Assembly (NCBI RefSeq): GCF_964213995.1
Contig: NC_135822.1
Coordinates: 25,854,001-25,918,000, forward strand
Origin: Mustelus asterias
Lineage: Eukaryota
Direction: 5' to 3'
Length of the DNA: 64,000 nucleotides
In this document: one piece after another, positions 143 through 39,647 of the stretch
Position numbering within the stretch: position 1 is the stretch's first letter
How the letters are laid out: every line of letters starts with the position of its first letter
Notes under the pieces: model-generated
The model's input: the letters and a program-made list of their open reading frames with translations, nothing else
What the model was told of the DNA's origin: nothing
Databases searched by the model: none
Made by a program: the position numbers and the translations under genes

Positions 143-359
143 GACCAAAAGAGAAAATGCTGGAAAATCTCAGCAGGTATGGCAGCATCTGTAAGGAGAG
201 AAAAGAGCTGATGTTTCAAGTCAGCTTTGACAAAGGGTCACCTGGACTCAAAAGGTCAGCTCTTTTCTCTCCTTACAGATGCTGCCAGACCTGCTGAGAT
301 TTTCCAGCATTTTCTCTTTTGGTTTCAGATTCCAGCATCCGCAGTAATTTGCTTTTATT
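143..359 (+). mobile_element. Penelope-like (family A) fold-back mini-element
   Basis: Inverted arms 144-222 and 245-323, 36-nt unpaired tail 324-359, 12-bp TSD ATGAATTCAGGG (131-142, 360-371); contains a hammerhead-like motif. Confidence 0.8.
223..261 (+). ncRNA. Degenerate minimal hammerhead ribozyme (U3-A8 type)
   Basis: AGCT-TTGACAA-A-GGGTC-acctg-GACTC-AAA-AGGT-C-AGCT; GAA->AAA and ACGT->AGGT relative to the intact copy at 16581. Confidence 0.6.
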
Positions 360-10153: not shown

Positions 10154-10192
10154 CACCTGACGAAGGAGCAGCAAGCGCTCCGAAAGCTAGTG
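10154..10192 (+). ncRNA. Minimal type I hammerhead ribozyme (Penelope-type)
   Basis: CAC-CTGACGA-A-GGAGC-agcaagc-GCTCC-GAA-AGCT-A-GTG; full core, palindromic stem III, predicted cleavage after 10189. Confidence 0.8.
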
Positions 10193-15299: not shown

Positions 15300-16580
15300 A
15301 TGTCCATAGATTGCAGATTTATATATCACACACAGACATAATGAATTGAGTTCATGACAGATTCACATCCCAGGACACCCAGATCCCTCTGTACCACCAA
15401 GTTCTGCAATCTCTCTCCATTTAAATAATATACTGCCTGTTATTGCTGCCAAAGTGGACAAGTTCACATTTTCCCACATTACACGCCATCTTTCAATTTT
15501 TTTGCCCAAAGGTGCAGAGCAGGTGTGGAATAAAATATGGGGCATGAAAAGCTAATGACAGTATCAAAACAGCTTGCATTTTTATAGTTCTTGCTACCTC
15601 GGTTGCAAAGACAAGGGAATAGGACCGATCACCATGTCCTCACTGAGATGGTCAATAAACAAGGCTTTGCTAATGTTGCTAATCCCCTCAGAGCAAATTT
15701 TTAAAAGCAGAACAACGTTAAGAACCCAATTTTCTAAATTCTCCCCACTTCAACACCCTGTAACTCCGATATCAAGTTTAACAAGTAGCAAAGTATGTGA
15801 AGCACACAACCATGTAATAAATTAAAGCATTACAGTAATCCAGTAACATTATACAGGAAAGACGACACTGTCTGTGCCAGTGGGGTGCCATAATAATAGC
15901 AGGAGGCATGGTACATTTGTAATATATACACCAGGCGGTCACTGTCTGTGATTTAGCTAAGAAAGAAACTATTAAACACTCAAATATTATTTGAACACTG
16001 CAGCATTATTCAGCCCAGTGCATTCCTGCTAAGCAGAAACATAATAGGCCAAACACTCCGTTCAATCCATTACTTCTAAGATACTAATCAAATTCACAAA
16101 TGACAATTGTGTGACCATGGTGCATGATCACTCTTTTGTTAGCGACGACTCAGCAGGTAGCATTCTTGTGCATTCTTTTCCAAACACTTGAGTACCAAAT
16201 CTAGGCTGACATTCCAAGGCAGTGCTGAAAGAATGCTGCACTGTTGAAGGTGCTGCCTTTAAACTAAAGCCCTGTCTCCTCTCTTTGGTGGACATAAGAG
16301 AACCAATGGCATAATTCAAAAGTAGGAAAACGTGCAGGGGGGAGGTGATGGTGTAGTGGAAATGTCACCGGATTAGTGATTCAGAAACCTGGACTAATGC
16401 TCTGGGGACACAGGTTCAAATCCCACCACTGGTGGAATTTAAATTCAATTTATAAATCTGGAAATACAGCCGTTCATTTGCTGTTGTTGGGTCACAATCC
16501 TGGAACTCCCTCGCTCACAGCACTGTGGGTGTACCTACACTACACAGACTGCAGCGCCTCAAGAAGGCAGCTCACAACCA

Positions 16581-16619
16581 AGTTTTGACAAAGGGTCATC
16601 TGGACTCGAAACGTCAGCT
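16581..16619 (+). ncRNA. Minimal hammerhead ribozyme, U3-A8 core variant with GUC cleavage triplet
   Basis: AGTT-TTGACAA-A-GGGTC-atctg-GACTC-GAA-ACGT-C-AGCT; predicted cleavage after 16615. Confidence 0.7.
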
Positions 16620-16679
16620 CTTTTTTCGCCTTACAGATGCTGCCAGACCTGCTGAGATTTTCCAGCATTTTCTCTTTTG
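16581..16679 (+). mobile_element. Penelope family A fragment
   Basis: Matches 223-321; degenerate TSD AGCTCACAACCA / AGCTCACGATCA. Confidence 0.8.
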
Positions 16680-18960
16680 AGCTCACGATCACCTTCTCAA
16701 GGGCAATTAGGGATGAGCAAAATTGCTGGTCCAGCCAACGATGACCACATCCAACAAAAAAGTTTTTAAAATTCTCACCAATGTCCTGGCCAATATTTAT
16801 CCCTTAACCATCATTACAAAATCATTTTTAAAATGTATATAGATATGACTGTTTACAGAATCCTGCTGGGCATAACTCGATGGCCACATTCCTACATTAC
16901 AATAATGACTACAGTTTTAAAGGAGTTAATTGGCTGTAACACACATTGAGATGTCCTGAGGTTGTGAGTGGCACTACATAAATGCAAATCGTTATTTCTT
17001 TCCTCGCATCCTCTGCAACTTTCCTGCTTCCCTGACACAGTCAACTACACCATCCTGCACCAAAATGTCTCCCCCATTGTTCAGCTCAGTGAGTCTGCCC
17101 TCACCAGAATAACTCCAGCCATGACTTTTAGCCCTGCCTCACAATATTAGCTGAGTTTCCCAAAAAAATCACTCTGCAGTTCCTCCTACTCTCTCTCCTA
17201 CATACTGCCCTTGGTAGAATCATCTGAAGATATAGAATCTGATTTCTGACATTGAGACTGACAACAAACAACTCTACCTTACCTCTTAGCTCTAACTGCG
17301 CTATTGTAGATAAGCAGGAACTTTATTCAACTTAGCACATGCAAAACTAAAGCCATTCAGTTCGGGTCCCTGCCAAAAGTCCACATCATAACTCAACTCT
17401 CCTCAGCTGCTTGCACCTACTGAACACATTGTTGCACAACTTTATTTGCCTCCAAACTAAATCAAGCTCCACATGTCTATCCATCGCCATGCTTGTCCAT
17501 TTCCATCTTCATTGCATTGTTCACCTCCATTCCCAATTTACCTCCAACTAACACGGGAGCCCTCATGTACGTTTTAGTCACCTCCAGGGTCAACCTTTCA
17601 AACCATCTCTTCACCATCCAGCACAAACTATTATCAGAATCTACTGGGGGTAACTTAGCGGCCACATTCCGACATTACAACAATGACTACACTTTTAAAG
17701 GAGTAATTGGCTGTAACACACACTGGGATGTCCCGAGGTTGTGAATGGCATTTACATAAATGCAAAACTGCAACCCCGCTTCCCTAAAACCCCTGTCCCA
17801 GTCCATCTCCCAACAACTCTCAGCCCCCAATCTATCAAATTAAAATCCTGATCCTTAGTCATAAATCCTTCTGCAATTTCACCTTTCTTCACTCTGCAAC
17901 TTGGCTTCAGCTCTGCATATTAAGATAACCATTTCGTTCTTTGAGCTCTGGTCCTCTTTGCATCAATGCTTCCTCCCAAAACCTGCCTGTCTCATTTCTT
18001 CACTTCCATCATTAAAAATTTTAAATTTTAACCATCTTCTTCCAAGATATCAGTCTATACAGGTAACGATGACTTCTACTTACCCAGTCTACAAGCTTGC
18101 ATAAATCAACTGTTCCATCTACGGGAAAACATTTCAAACATTGATTGGACGTTTCTTTTTGTGTTAACAGATTAAATGTCCAATGCTTTGCAAAAAAAGA
18201 CCATTACTTCGATCATCAAACTGAAAGTTTCAAGGGGCAGAATCTGAAATGATTGAGATTCCTCTACATCAGATTTTAATAACATACTTAATTACATGAG
18301 AATGATGCCCAGTCCAGTAAAAACACAACGCAATACTTACAGAAACTGTCTGTAACATTGCCTTGTCCCAGTGCAACTCCTGCCCTGCTGCGATGCCCTG
18401 GTCATTCCACAATGACAACTTCTGACTGTATGGTACAGTAAATAAAACACAAAACACCCATTTGGATACAGAGTGTTGTCATGGAACAGCTCCATTTTAT
18501 CCACACTGGAGTGCTGGGGGTGCTCGGGCTAGTAGCAACATGCACTTCTGCATTATTGAAACCAGAGCCCTATACTTTTACAATAATGAAATGAAATTGC
18601 TGGTTAGCGCGACACAGAAGCCAGGATTGGTGCAGCATAAGACATTCCTGAACAAAGAGATTTAGAGGCTGCCAGTGAAGCAGTAGAATTATCTCCCTGG
18701 CAGAGTTATCCTGCAGTTCAAACTGCTGGTCAGGAGGGGAGCAGGATAACTAAAACATGAAAGTAAAGTTCTAAAAGATGGAAAAGGGTGACAAAGAAAG
18801 AAATATTTCTGAATCCCAGTTGTCAGTGGAATATTGTTGATTATTGCACTCACAGTTCCATGGTTATTTCTTTAGAACAGTTCAATATATTCCTCGACAC
18901 TCAGCTATATCAATCACTGCCTCTGGCTTGCTGGAATGCATTTGTTCAAACTAAAGCGGA

Positions 18961-20864: not shown

Positions 20865-22035
20865 TTATTCATTCATGGGATATGGGCTCACTGGCCGGCC
20901 AGCATTTATTGCCCATCCCTAGTTGCCCTTGAGAAGGTGGTGGTGAGCTGCCTTCTTGAATCGTTGAAGTCCATGTTCTGTGGGTTGACCCACAATGCTG
21001 TTAGGGAGGGAATTCCAGCAACTGTGAGTGAACAGCGATATATTTCCAAACCAGGATGGTGAGTGGCTTGGAGGGGAACTTGCAGGGAGTGGTGTTCCCA
21101 TGTATCTGCTGCCCTTGTCCTTTTAGATGGAAGTGGTCGTGGGTCTGGAAGGTGCTGTCTAAGGATCTTTTGTGAATAGCTGCAGTGCATCTTGCAGACA
21201 GTACACACTGCTGCTACTGAGCGTCAGTGGTGGAGGAAGTGGATGTGGTGCTAATCAAGCGGGCTGCTTTGTCCTGGACGGTGTCAAGCTCCTTGAGTGT
21301 TGTTGGAGCTGCACCCACCCAGGCAAGTGGGGAGTATTCCATCACACTCCTGACTTGTGCCTTGTAGATGGTGGACAGGCTTTGGGGAGTCAAGAGGTGA
21401 GTTACTCACCGCAGTATTCCTAGCCTCTGACCTGCTCTTGCAGCCAATGTTTATGTTGGTGAGTCCAGATGAGTTTCTGGTCAATGGTAACCCCAAGGAT
21501 GTTGACAGTGGGGGATTCAGTGATGGTAACACCATTGAATGTCAAGGGGTGGTGGTTACAGTATTTCTTATTGGTGATGGTCAGTGCCTGGCATTTGTGT
21601 GGCACGAATGTTACTTGCCACTTGTCAGCCCAAGCCTGGATATTGTCCAGATATTGTTGCATTTGAACATGGACTGCTTCAGTATCTGAGGAGTTGCGAA
21701 TGGTGCTGAACATTGTGCAATCATCGGCGAACATCCCCACTTCTGACCTGACGGAGGGAAGCTCATTGATGAAGCAGCTAAAGATGGTTGGGGCTAGGAC
21801 ACTACCTTGAGGGACTGATGCAGAGATGTCCTGGAGCTGAGATGATCGACCCTCCACAACCACAACCGTCTTCCTATGTACCAGGTATGACTTCTACCAG
21901 TGGAGTGTTTGCCCCCTGATACCAGTTTTGCTAGGGCTCCTTGATGTCACACTCCGTCAAATGCAGTCTTGATGTCAAGGGCTGTCACTCTCACCTCATC
22001 TCTGGAATTCAGCTCTTTCATCCAAGTTTGAACCA
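20865..22035 (-). mobile_element. CR1-type LINE 3' fragment (second family)
   Basis: SVPQGSVLAPTIFSCFIN..FADD RT motifs; 3' end GGGATGGGCAATAAATGCTGGCC. Confidence 0.85.
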
Positions 22036-24100: not shown

Positions 24101-24965
24101 CACAGGTACAACAGCAATAAAGACTGATATTTAGATTTGTACACCCTTCAGTATTGTCACTGAGCATATCCAGCACATTGGGGTACTAACACATTCATGG
24201 GAAAATAGCGTATGAGTACCAATACACCAGGCACAACAATATTACACATATCTAGTGCAAAGACAGCTCTTAATCCAGTACACTTCAATGTTACACAAAA
24301 TCTTGGGTGATGTTTTTAATTTATGATCTCAATTTGATTGCACCAACCAACCAACACGAGCAGTAATTGTAACGGTGCTTCATCCTAACAAATTTGCTCC
24401 AAACACAACAAGAGTTTGTAAACTCAAAATATATATTGCTCTTCAGAGTTTGAATAGGTACAGTACAAAATTTCTACTCGCCCACTATTTATTGTACTTG
24501 CTAAATCCCAGTGACAATTATATATTCCAGCACTTAATATAGATGAGATTGTTACAAACTTTTATACACTTTATATGACAAGTTGTACCACGATTTAAAT
24601 AAGGAGTATGAAATTTATGAGCACATTAAAAAAAATGCCATAGAAAATTACCGCAGTTGGATCTGTTTTTCTTTCACTGGGCACTGGAACATATTAACCC
24701 ATCTTGGCTAAACAAATGCATTGATTGCTATGAAATCTAGAGATTAAAAGGAGTGTAGATGAACTATAACGTTTACAACCCATCTGACAGATATGTACAG
24801 GATGACCCAGGTTTGATTTCTAAACAGATTTCAACAGTTGGGTGTGAGAAGTGGCCTCAATGCGACTTCGGAAGGAGCAAAAAAAAAAATCAGAATTCTG
24901 ATTCATTATTATTCACCAATAACTCGTGCCTGGAAGTGCCTGTACAAATATTGGGTCAGGACTGT

Positions 24966-25114
24966 AAAATAAAACAAAATACTGCAGATGCTGAAGATCT
25001 GAAATAAAAACAAAATAGACAAGAAGTCATACAGGCTCGAAATGTTAACTCTGTTTCTCGCTCCACAGATGCTGCCAGATCTGTTGAGTTTTTCCGGCAC
25101 ATTTTGTTTTTTGT
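24966..25114. mobile_element. Old Penelope family A-like fold-back relic
   Basis: AAATACTGCAGATGCTG...CTCGAAATGTTAAC...CACAGATGCTGCCAGA. Confidence 0.55.
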
Positions 25115-25319
25115 TTGGGTGAGGACAGGATTGGGTTTAGCTAGTTCCAGTGGTCAAACAGTCTGCCAACACTCAATGTCTAGATCCAGAGACTGACTAC
25201 TGAGGGAATCTACCTATTGAAGTGGGAATCAACATCTTCAGGAGAGATGGAGGGGAAAAGTTCAAAAAAAAAGTGCTGGATGAACTCAGCAGGTCTGAAG
25301 AAAGAAAGAGAGTTAATGT

Positions 25320-27362: not shown

Positions 27363-27777
27363 TCTACCGGTTGAGGGAGGCTGAGCTCTGGCTTTTCTGA
27401 TGCTCATTTGGACTCTGAGCTGTTGTCGTATTCAACTGTAAATAGATGGACTGAGACATTCTTCCCCCAGAAAGGGGACACATCCATCCAGTTCAGACTG
27501 ATGACCTGAGTCGCCCCCCCCCCCCCCCCCCCAAAATAGTTTATCTGTGAAACCAGTTTCAGGTAGTCTGTTTATTCATTTCCAACATGCAAGGCTCCAC
27601 AACACACACAAATCCCCTTGTTTGGTAAAAGCAAAATACTGTGGATATTGGAATCTGAAACATAAACAGTAAGATACCGTCAGACCTACTAAAATTTCCC
27701 AGTATTTTCTGTTTTTATTCCCTTGTTTGATATTCAGAAGACTACAGGGGCCTTTATTCTGTAACAAATGTCTACAT

Positions 27778-28090: not shown

Positions 28091-28351
28091 TGGTCTGTGA
28101 ATGCTTATTCAAAGTAAATAAACAGAAAATTCTGCAGAACCATATAAAAATGGAAATGTGTCAACTTCTATAGGGATAAGATGTTGTTCATTAGTCTGTA
28201 TTCAAAAACCTACGAATGTTAGAGTTGTCTATGGCTTTATTTTTACATTGAAACAGAAAATGCAGGAAATATTCAGCTGTTCTGGCAACATCTGTGGAGA
28301 GAGAGACAGTTAATGGCTGTGACCTTATTTTTAAATCGATGTCTACTTTAG

Positions 28352-29849: not shown

Positions 29850-31400
29850 AAATATTCAGGTCCCTGTCTTGGTTATCTTCAACCATACCTCTGTAATGTT
29901 TATTAAGGCAGACATATTTATTTCTACCTGTGCCAACAATTCATCCATTTGGTTACAAATGCTGTACACATTCAGATAACAGTCTTCATACCATTTTTGT
30001 AACATCTGGCCTTATCTGCTGGTTGCACACTTAAGTTTATATGCTCTGTCCCTCCTGCCACCTGTTAGTATTATCCATGTTGCTCCTTTGCTCTATTACC
30101 TTGTCATTTCCCTATAATTTACCACATTGCCACTCATTTGACCCCTTCCACCCCACTATTTAGTTAAAAGCCCTTTCTACCACCCTAGTGTACATTTCTC
30201 CAGAATATTTGTCCCAGCACTGTTCAGCTGAAGGTCGTCCCAATCCAGAGATTATTACCTTGGAGGTTCTGCTTTTTAATTTAGCCCCTAGCTGCTCATA
30301 CTCTCTAAGCAGAATCTCTTTCCAAGTCCTATCTATTTCATTGTTACCCACAGGACCACAGCAACTGGATTTGGAAAGTCATAATATGATCAAGCAGAGC
30401 CAGCATGGTTTCATGAAGGGGAAATCATGTTTGACAAATTTACTAGAGTTCTTTGAGGAGGTATCAGCCAGAGTAGATAGAGGAGAACCAGTCGATGTTG
30501 TATATTTGGATTTTCAAAGGGCATTTGATAAAGTGCCACACAAAAGGCTATTATGCAAGATAGGAGCTCATGGTGTTGGTGGTGTAATATTCTGGCATGA
30601 ATTGAGGATTGGTTAACCAACAGGAAGCAGCGAGTGGTGATCCTAGGTATAGAGGGACTGCCATATGAGAAAAGATTAAACAGGATGGGTCTGTACTTGG
30701 AGTTCAGAAGAATGAGAGGTGATATGATTGAAACATATCAGATTATTAGGGGTTAGCCAGGGTAAATGTTGGGAGGATGTTTCCACTCATGGAAGTGTGT
30801 AGGACCAGAGTGCATAGGCATAGAATAAGGGGGTGCTCATTTAAGATGGATTTGAGAAAGAATTTCTTCTCAGAGTGGTGAATCTTTGGAATTGTTTACC
30901 CAGGAAGCTGTGGAGACCGAGTCCTTGGACATTTTCAAGGCTAAGATTGAAAGGTTTTTATTAAGTTGGGGTGGGGAATCAAGGGTTATGGAGAGAAGGC
31001 AGGAAAGTGGGCTTAATGAATATTAGTGTGATCTTATTAAGTAGCGGAGCAGACTCAAGGGGCTGAAGGGCCTACTCCTGTTCCCTATTTCTTATGCCCC
31101 TCCCACTGCGTTACTCTCCAGCCTGAGCAGATGTCCTGAACCCTGGCACTGGGCTGGCAACACAGCTGAGCTGACTCTCACGCTTGGCTACTGAGAATTG
31201 AATCCATTCCCCTGACTATATTATCCCTTGCTGCCACTATTTACTCGCCCCACTTGAATAGCATCCTGTACCTAGTCTGTTTACAAAGGCTGAGACTCCT
31301 CCATTCTATATTTTCAATCCCCTTATCTGTCTCACACATAGTCACACCTTCCTGTCCCTGATCATGGACCAAATTAGAAGATCCTATCCTAAGTGGTGCT
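29850..31400. mobile_element. Minus-strand CR1 ORF1 region with a nested, internally deleted plus-strand CR1 (about 30371-31096)
   Basis: LKSRTSKVIISGL on the minus strand; QHGFMKGKSCLTNLLEFF..DFQRAFDKVPH on the plus strand. Confidence 0.75.
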
Positions 31401-33250: not shown

Positions 33251-33385
33251 CATGTGTTCAGACATCAGATTTTTTAAATATATAAATGATGCACACGGTG
33301 GGGGGGTGTGGGGTGGACGCTGGGAGGAGGAGAGACATTTTTATAGAGCTAATCTATAAAGAGTACGTTTCAGTAAAATAATAAA

Positions 33386-34757
33386 ATCAAACGCTTGAAT
33401 CTATCATCAAGGAAGAAATAGCGAGACATCTGGATATAAATTGTCCCATTGGGAAGACGCAGCATGGGTTCATGAAGGGAAGGTCATGTTTGACTAATTT
33501 GGTGGAATTCTTTGAGAACATTACATGTGCAGCGGACAATGGGGAACCTGTGGATGTGGTGTATCTGGATTTCCAGAAGGCATTTGACAAGGTGCCGCAC
33601 CAAAGACTGCTCCATAGGATAAAGGTGCACAGTGTTACGGGTAATGTATTAGCATGGATAGAGGATTGGTTAACTAACAGAAAGCAAAGAGTGGAGGTAA
33701 ATGGGTGTTTTTCTGGTTGGCGATCAGTGACTAGTGGTGTGCCTCAGGGATCAGTGTTGGGACCGCAATTGTTTACAATTTACATAGATGATTTGGAGTT
33801 GGGGACTAAGTGTGGTGTGTCAAAATTCGCAGATGACACTGAGATGGGTGGAAGAGCAAAGTGTGCAGAGGACGCTGAAAGTCTGCAAAGAGATATAGAT
33901 AATCTAAGTGAGTGGGCGAGGGTCTGGCAGATGGAGTACAATGTTGGTAAATGTGAGGTCATCCATTTTGGTAGGAATAACAGCAAAATGGACTATTATT
34001 TAACTGGTAAAAAATTGCAGCATGCTGCTGTGCAGAGGGACCTGGGTGTCCTGGTGCAGGAATCTCGAGGAGTTGGTTTGCAGGTGCAGCAGGTAATTAA
34101 GAAGGCAAATGGAATTTTGTCCTTCATTGCTAGAGGGATGGAGTTTAAAAACAGCGAGGTTATGTTGCAGCTGTATAAGGTGCTGGTGAGGCCACACCTG
34201 GAGTACTGTGTACAGTTTTGGTCTCCTTATTTGAGAAAGGATATACTGGCACTGGAGGGGGTGCAGAGGAGATTCACTAGGTTGATTCTGGAGTTGAGAG
34301 GGTTGGCTTATGAGGAGAGACTGAGTAGACTGGGGCTACACTCATTGGAATTCAGAAGAATGAGGAGAGATCTTATAGAAACATATAAGATTATGAAGGG
34401 AATAGATAAGATAGAAACAGGGAAGTTGTTTCCACTGGCAGATGAAACTAGAACAAGGGGGCATAGCCTCAAAATAAGAGGAAGCAGATTTAGGACTGAG
34501 TTGAGGAGGACTTTCGTCACACAAAGGGTTGTGAATCTGTGGAATTCCCGCCCAGTGAAATAGTTGAGGCTACCTCATTGAATGTTTTTAAGGCAAGGAT
34601 AGATACATTTTTGAACAGTAAAGGAATTAAGGGTTATGGTGAGCGGGCGGGTAAGTGGAGCTGAGTCCACAAAAAGATCAGCCATGATCTTATTGAATGG
34701 CGGAGCAGGCTCGAGGGGCCAGATGGCCTACTCCTGCTCCTAGTTCTTATGTTCTTA
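33386..34757 (+). mobile_element. Young 5'-truncated CR1 LINE with an uninterrupted 363-aa RT C-terminal ORF
   Basis: ORF 33472-34563 with DFQKAFDKVPH, GVPQGSVLGP, KFADD; (TTCTTATG) tail. Confidence 0.95.
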
Positions 34758-38131: not shown

Positions 38132-39522
38132 AAACATAGAAAACTACAGCACAAAACAGGCCCTTCGGCCCCACAAGTTGTGCCGAACATATCCCTACCT
38201 ATTCGGAGAGGAATTTCCCAGATTTTCTTTTCCCCATATTGGCCCTGGGGTTTTCACTCTGGGTTTTCGCCTCTCCCTGGAGATCACATGGTCTGGAATG
38301 GGGGGGTGGGGGTGAGTTAATAGGTTGTGATGAACAAAGCATCGTAGCTGTGAGGGACAGCTCGGTGGATAGGATATTGGTATGTAGATAGGCTGGAAAA
38401 TTGGGCGGGGATCCTGGATTCAGGATTCAATCCTGGACCAGGGAGCGGCGCGGGCTTGGAGGGCCGAAGGGCCTGTTCCTGTGCTGTATTGTTCTTTGTT
38501 CTTTGTTCTACCTATAACCCTCCATCCTATTAAGTCCCATGTACTCGTCCAGGAGTCTCTTAAAAGACCCTATTGAGTTTGCCTCCACCACCACTGACGG
38601 CAGCCGATTCCACTCGCCCACCACCCTCTGTGTGAAAAACTTCCCCCCTAACATTTCCCCTGTACCTACCCCCCAGCACCTTAAACCTGTGTCCTCTGGT
38701 AGCAGCCATTTCCACCCTGGGAAAAAGCCTCTGAGAGTCCACCCGATCTACGCCTCTCAACATCTTATACACCTCTATTAGGTCTCCTCTCATCCTACGT
38801 CTCTCCAAGGAGAAAAGACCGAGCTCCCTCAGCCTATCCTCATAAGGCATGCCACTCAATCCAGGCAACATCCTTGTAAATCTCCTCTGCACCCTTTCAA
38901 TTTTTTCCACATCCTTCCTGTAATGAGGCGACCAGAACTGAGCACAGTACTCCAAGTGGGGTCTGACGAGGGTCTTATAAAGCTGCATCATTATCCCTGG
39001 ACTCCTAAACTCAATCCCTCGATTGATAAAAGCCAGCACACCTTACGCCTTCTTAACCACTTCCTCCACCTGCGGGGCCAATTTTAGAGTCCTATGGACC
39101 CGGACCCCAAGGTCCTTCTGACCCTCCACAGTACTAAGAGTCTTTCCCTTTATATTGTACTCCTTCATCCCATTTGACCTGCCAAAATGGACCACTACGC
39201 ATTTATCTGGGTTGAAGTCCATCTGCCACTTCTCCGCCCAGTCTTGCATCCTATCTATGTCCCTCTGTAACTTCTGACATCCCTCCAGACTATCCACAAC
39301 CCCACCAACCTTCGTGTCGTCGGCAAACTTACCAACCCACCCCTCCACTTCCTCATCCAGGTCATTTATGAAAATGACAAACAGCAAGGGTCCCAGAACA
39401 GATCTCTGGGGCACACCACTGGTGACCGACATCCATTTAGAAAAAGACCCATCTATACCCACTCTCTGCCTCCTTTGGGCAAGCCAGTTCTGCATCCACA
39501 GGGCAACAGCCCCTTGGATCCC
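38132..39522 (-). mobile_element. CR1 LINE 3' fragment with a nested plus-strand CR1 3' end (38203-38507)
   Basis: ORFs 38560-39039 and 39043-39549; the nested insert has an 8-bp TSD CTACCTAT. Confidence 0.9.
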
Positions 39523-39647
39523 ATTTCTTGTTCTATGTTTATGAACCATCTGACCTGTACCTGATAAAATACCAGAAACTATTCTCCTGCAAGTGCTGAA
39601 TTATTTGCTTTACTGTAAAGCTCATGTTTGCTTGTCTTGTTTTGCAG

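Follow-up and report, generated by a model that had tools for sequence, protein, structure and literature searches.

The repeat at 16581 in the 64-kb stretch of shark DNA analysed here (hereafter the window) is probably a truncated pLTR copy of a Neptune-type Penelope-like retroelement carrying a minimal type I hammerhead with a U3-A8 core pair, for which weak, dimer- or protein-assisted cleavage after C17 is predicted. The coordinates of the motif and of the copies in the window are collected in Table 1.

Table 1. Parts of the hammerhead motif and copies of the U3-A8 family in the window. Hammerhead numbering follows PMC4209133; cleavage is predicted after 16615.
Feature	Position	Strand	Remarks
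Stem I, 5' strand	16581..16584	+	AGUU here, AGCU in the U3-A8 family
Core U3 U4 G5 A6 C7 A8 A9	16585..16591	+	U3 = 16585, A8 = 16590
Unpaired A between A9 and G10.1	16592	+	typical of the Penelope minimal hammerheads described in PMC4209133
Stem-loop II, 5 bp, G10.1-C11.1 closing pair, 5-nt loop	16593..16607	+	strands GGGUC 16593-97 and GACUC 16603-07
G12 A13 A14, palindromic ACGU (15.1-16.1) for intermolecular stem III, C17	16608..16615	+	GAA 16608-10, ACGU 16611-14, C17 = 16615
Stem I, 3' strand, AGCU	16616..16619	+	element +36 to +39
Penelope-like pLTR copy, 99 bp, +1 (first base of stem I) to inner 3' end	16581..16679	+	no tail, no upstream TATA
Left target-site duplication, 12 bp	16569..16580	+	matches the right copy at 10/12 bases; lies within an older repeat
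Right target-site duplication	16680..16691	+	
Further copy of the family, from +1 through the 36-37 nt tail	223..358	+	U3-A8 core, G12A, palindrome broken
Inverted, 5'-truncated partner arm of the 223 copy	146..222	-	

The sequence-only reading had laid out stem I, UUGACAA, stem II, GAA and ACGU over 16581-16619. All of these parts matched the sequence, and only the unpaired A at 16592 had been left out. It had also pointed to two UUGACAA copies in the window. The core was indeed present in both, but the copy at 223 was degenerate, with a G>A change at G12 and the ACGU palindrome lost, and only the copy at 16581 was intact. Every core and stem position was retained in the latter; its stem I has four base pairs including one U-G wobble, which comes from a private C>T change in the AGCU of the family. 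The core carried U4, G5, A6, A9, G12, A13, A14, A15.1 and U16.1 and a Watson-Crick 3-8 pair, here U3-A8, while the canonical CUGANGA lettering is all but absent from the U3-A8 family (2 C3-G8 copies). Traits of the minimal type I were found throughout, i.e., the G10.1-C11.1 pair of stem II, an unpaired base after A9, a stem I of 4-5 bp and a palindromic 15.1-16.1 stretch replacing stem III. The Rfam hammerhead families gave no match at gathering score in the 64-kb window, as anticipated by the earlier claim that CUGANGA descriptors miss the variant. The bare pattern TTGACAA..GAAAC gave one match against 0.69 expected in 64 kb, showing no excess over chance. Since a single motif in the window does not rise above chance, the case for a hammerhead rests on the family counts.

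A 29-mer probe that excludes the core letters was used for these counts, and exact matches were counted genome-wide. UUGACAA preceded 2,323 of the 3,287 exact 29-mer copies, whereas the reversed-pattern control gave none. Among 30 loci chosen regardless of core, 22 carried UUGACAA and none carried G8, the remainder being truncated or singly changed. The core swap is thus a family trait, as had been supposed from two copies, and the family consensus that the earlier note proposed to build is UUGACAA and not CUGANGA (2,323 copies against 2 with C3-G8). G8 was found in 41 copies, with U3 in all 10 of these that were read; 39 were U3-G8, and the CpG-decay letter occurred in 8 of the 41. We considered the 39 U3-G8 copies as an intermediate subfamily, but they could not be told apart from later point changes. 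A pattern shortened by two letters found C3 in 75 copies, with A8 in 73 and G8 in 2. A C3-G8 subfamily inside the U3-A8 family was rejected, since the 2 copies seen compare with 1.2 expected under independence, and there is accordingly no covariation among dead copies within the family. Changes at positions 3 and 8 were independent, as dead copies would show. The very high copy number suggested earlier was borne out by 12,553 exact genome-wide occurrences of the tail 24-mer. In long loci this 24-mer is exact in 20 of the 37 copies, so that it corresponds to approximately 23,000 arms, and a 36-mer gave approximately 21,000; the family total is estimated at about 20,000 arms.

In most long copies the motif sits 300-460 bases behind a frame for RT plus a putative GIY-YIG, and its location is the pLTR of a Penelope-like element. 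The long relatives have a broken frame upstream of the motif. One family copy retained a frame of 732 aa, in which Pfam recognized RVT_1 above the cut-off (E 6e-7) and GIY-YIG under the curated cut-off (E 0.006), with a motif order that fits by eye; a more decayed family copy gave no Pfam match to GIY-YIG. The linker between RT and endonuclease, CNRRRCNTC, has the form CX4CxxC and agrees with the CX2-5CxxC definition in PMC8557442. The optional tail of 30-40 bp, inverted 5'-truncated partners and target-site duplications (TSDs) were all present in the U3-A8 family. Together with the RT, the linker and the weak GIY-YIG match, these traits agree with the Neptune type of PMC8557442. Among the long loci read, no complete pLTR-ORF-pLTR or partial tandem copy was found. 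Two candidates for a full-length element were rejected. A tandem array on contig 9 proved to be a repeated broken sister-clade copy, and the upstream copy at locus L105 was a separate insertion. The array (L316-L318, contig 9:77170000-77195999) has a 3,642-bp period at 99% identity and joins the broken sister-clade element to a second hammerhead repeat. Inverted pairs at six loci of contig 1 (L044, L045, L059, L241, L244 and L270) have a common short inter-arm spacer, a hint of a secondarily amplified composite form.

A C3-G8 sister family, for which 1,396 exact matches were counted, has CUGACGA as its core; it shares stem II with the U3-A8 family, its triplet is GUU and its stem I reads AGCU/GGCU. 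A tree of 74 endonuclease stretches, drawn at midpoint without an outgroup root, separated into two clades with support 100/100. All 33 readable cores of the first clade were U3-A8 (10 unreadable), and the second comprised 16 C3-G8 and 6 C3-A8 cores (9 unreadable; four rows came from one tandem array), the C3-A8 rows being consistent with CpG decay. The remaining eleven core and closing-pair positions were identical between the two families. The covariation of the 3-8 pair between families is thus real. The earlier view of U3-A8 as compensatory stood for the comparison of sister families, but it did not extend to copies within the family, as the counts above show. In older relatives 48 of 59 cores, counted by eye, were C3-G8; their core is mostly CUGAAGA genome-wide, and a G-U to A-U change in stem II left the stem intact. 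U3-A8 is likely derived from C3-G8, and since the tree was drawn at midpoint, this status rests on parsimony. Selection receives modest support from the covariation, which amounts to a single evolutionary event and involves a mutable CpG at G8. Position 17 was mostly U in two of the six other organisms whose contigs cover the motif, and in these two no variant at positions 3 and 8 was found among the matches listed, where contig ends clip differences. The GUC triplet may thus be younger than the U3-A8 swap.

The 5' and 3' ends were scored in 97 tail-anchored copies among the matches listed (100 of 9,011). The intact motif was kept in 22 of these 97, and the neighbouring tail was conserved to roughly the same extent as the ribozyme. 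In 29 copies the 5' end coincided with the first base of stem I and in 48 it lay within +1 to +4, while 19 extended far upstream and one began at the cut site. The 3' ends formed two groups, one of 44 copies (+99 to +107) and another of 42 (+133 to +135, where the reference ends). Of the 27 U3-A8 family copies with a TATAAA within 60 bases (78 were without, mostly truncated), 26 have it at -30, and all five sister copies having one (18 without) have it at -30/-31, although the spacer between TATA and stem I differs at about half its bases between the families. The older family had no clear TATAAA. From the pattern of ends and spacing, the likely transcription start is the first base of stem I (+1), and the ribozyme would then be the 5' end of the RNA. 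Our literature search found no paper linking the start of the ribozyme to a TATA-directed transcription start. A putative TATA plus initiator has been described in a rotifer pLTR without a link to the ribozyme (PMC3846280), and the Penelope of D. virilis has a TATA-less internal promoter (PMC2377424). The proposed start-site placement of the ribozyme is the only fresher point beyond published facts.

Folding models were less favorable to cleavage. The monomer folding of the 16581 motif was not unusual (z -0.8, range to -1.4), and in the predicted fold the GAC of the core pairs with GUC, so that the hammerhead is closed. A hammerhead-like monomer had a modelled probability of about 0.003 in the 16581 copy and of 0.02 in a copy of family type. 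For dimers, the active form was modelled at -10 to -15 kcal/mol, weaker than the best fold at -21 to -23 kcal/mol. A closed fold was predicted for both families, in the sister by pairing of GACG with CGUU (loci L143 and L204), and C17 may regain the pair lost with G8 and so preserve the off state. If it cuts, the U3-A8 motif likely does so only weakly, and as a dimer or assisted by protein. Traces of cutting in the genomic copies were sparse. Two non-consensus bases directly before +36 occurred in 76 of 12,553 copies (at most about 0.6%). Thirty such copies were read: 15 had deletions or double changes and kept the upstream element sequence, the other 15 were joints to an inverted partner at a shared AGCT, and none joined the cut site to unrelated DNA. 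Among the matches listed (100 of 380 broken copies), joining at AGCT was counted by eye about 12 times and each of two other 4-base overlaps 5-6 times, an excess which is weak at best. The C3-G8 sister family had no obvious cut-site peak among the matches listed (100 of 542). Since nearly all copies include the ribozyme, their templates were uncut. Genomic copies are templated almost entirely by uncut RNA, as in PMC11167929. Read from the sequences, this copy record would be compatible with an active as well as an inactive ribozyme, and neither proves nor excludes activity.

Within the window, the two arms at 146..222 and 223..358 are bracketed by a 12-bp duplication at about 131-142 and 360-371. 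The copy at 16581 is likely inert, having neither a promoter nor a near partner. It interrupts a host repeat at about 16340-16800, which by eye has a tRNA-like head and recurs uninterrupted at 20929-20957, and which may be a shark SINE or LINE tail; ARAGORN found no tRNA in the repeat around 16340-16800. An unrelated repeat at 10157 (+) and 37954 (-) has a canonical CUGACGA hammerhead core and GAAAGCUA on its 3' side. This repeat, which abounds in the loci fetched, probably belongs to another Penelope family. An older relative of the U3-A8 family, with a GUU triplet, has left decayed copies at 25018-25113 (+), with an inverted arm at 24963-25017, and also at 25259-25297, 27672-27715 and 28251-28295. 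RT fragments of other retroelements lie at 21423-21893, 30164-30613, 33385-34560 and 39046-39600. None of the 23 window frames of at least 130 aa was a clear host coding frame; they gave RT fragments and two weak unrelated matches.

The 5'-end pile-up at stem I could have arisen without a transcription start there, either by joining at the palindromic AGCT or by use of a 3' splice site, as in helix I of the Drosophila Penelope. About 23 of the 29 copies starting at +1 are joined to an inverted partner (by eye, among the copies listed), a pyrimidine run ending in AG lies directly upstream of stem I, and the D. virilis intron is reported to end at helix I (PMC4209133), all of which would suit such an origin. 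The +1 end holds, however, beside genomic DNA as well as beside partners ending anywhere, and ends at the second AGCT, at +36, are about 100-fold rarer. Splicing would predict +3 starts behind a common first exon, and none were seen, while the TATAAA spacing is retained between the families. We consider joining or splicing unlikely as the source of the pile-up, and prefer a start of transcription at +1. A further possibility, that the 16581 copy is a working ribozyme acting on a host transcript, is suggested by the complete retention of its core and stem positions, and appears extremely improbable. The TATA region is absent, no close intact same-strand partner exists (the 223 copy is 16 kb off and carries G12A), the private C>T is predicted to favour the closed fold, and no clear host coding frame was found among the 23 frames, a result that leaves room for an intron location.

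Another alternative is that U3-A8 is a catalytically dead relic, cleavage being dispensable for the spread of the family and the two changes being CpG decay plus a chance transition. The G8 of the sister core lies in a CpG and is frequently lost to decay (C3-A8 in 6 of the 22 sister rows), the copies derive from uncut RNA, and published work gives this reading further room, as ribozyme mutants were without effect on insertion in vitro (PMC11167929) and Naiad elements thrive without hammerheads (PMC8557442). Against it, the 3-8 pair is precisely what the second change restored, whereas the eleven further core and closing-pair positions do not differ between the families, and U3-A8 recurs in unrelated hosts (PMC4209133, PMC3088659). 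The lack of listed variants at positions 3 and 8 in two of the six other organisms, with the scope given above, points in the same direction. A dead relic thus seems to us a rather unlikely account, and a weakly cleaving, assisted ribozyme remains our preferred reading.

The probable course of events begins with a CUGACGA ancestor, from which U3-A8 would have arisen, likely by CpG decay of G8 and then C3>U. The TATA box 30 bases upstream would place the transcription start at +1. RT would then start internally, approximately 100 or 135 bases in, as suggested by PMC11167929 and by the two classes of 3' ends seen here, and would copy back to the 5' end of the RNA, leaving stubs like 16581..16679. 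A cut after C17 would remove a capped 35-nt leader. In its fullest form the proposal makes the hammerhead, as the first 39 bases of a TATA-driven RNA, a self-decapping brake, with only uncut RNA being copied and the sister families serving as a natural paired experiment in its tuning; this we regard as speculative and quite doubtful. If the ribozyme does start at +1, it would not, for that transcript, free a 5' end from a longer precursor, and a cut would instead decap it. Two sister families differing at the 3-8 pair are in any event a ready natural comparison, and searches based on CUGANGA alone undercount hammerheads by thousands per genome.

The U3-A8 ribozymes tested in vitro were reportedly full hammerheads with a stable stem III, whereas the U3-A8 family is without stem III and would need a dimer or protein. 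Covariation of C3-G8 to U3-A8 in natural hammerheads, and in vitro activity of such cores, had already been described (Perreault et al., 2011, PMC3088659, citing Przybilski and Hammann, 2007). The core swap is therefore not new; it was known from that work and from the Penelope pLTR hammerheads of PMC4209133, and the present family adds one vertebrate example to a published variant. The nearest counterpart is Cercyon of Schistosoma mansoni, whose Penelope pLTRs carry U3-A8 minimal hammerheads with about 1,300 matches (Cervera and De la Pena, 2014, PMC4209133); according to the same paper, Penelope minimal hammerheads depend on dimers and have low activity in vitro. As far as that paper describes it, Cercyon resembles the shark family in the core swap, the short stem I, the unpaired base before stem II, G10.1-C11.1, the palindromic 15-16 stretch, the pLTR location and the prevalence of solo copies. 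It differs from the shark family, which is a vertebrate Neptune-type element with a 5-bp stem II, about 20,000 arms and a closely related C3-G8 family alongside it in the genome. Shark terms were absent from the two supplements of PMC4209133 that were searched, and a literature search on shark Penelope hammerhead ribozymes gave nothing on target.

With the Neptune clade, as presented by Craig et al. (2021, PMC8557442), the family shares the RT, the CX2-5CxxC linker, a putative C-terminal GIY-YIG, the hammerhead pLTR, the optional 30-40 bp tail, the inverted 5'-truncated partner and the TSD. It differs in that no full-length copy was recovered, and the assignment was made by features and not by an RT tree. 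The role of Penelope hammerheads is still described as open in PMC8557442 and PMC11167929. In the anole Poseidon element PAc, cleavage is assisted by protein and uncut RNA is the template for insertion (Frangieh et al., 2024, PMC11167929). From what that source details, PAc is similar to the U3-A8 family in that its tail is set by two RT start sites and its hammerhead lies close to the RNA's 5' end, whereas its core is C3-G8 and its ORF begins inside the ribozyme; in the U3-A8 family the ribozyme itself likely begins at the transcription start.
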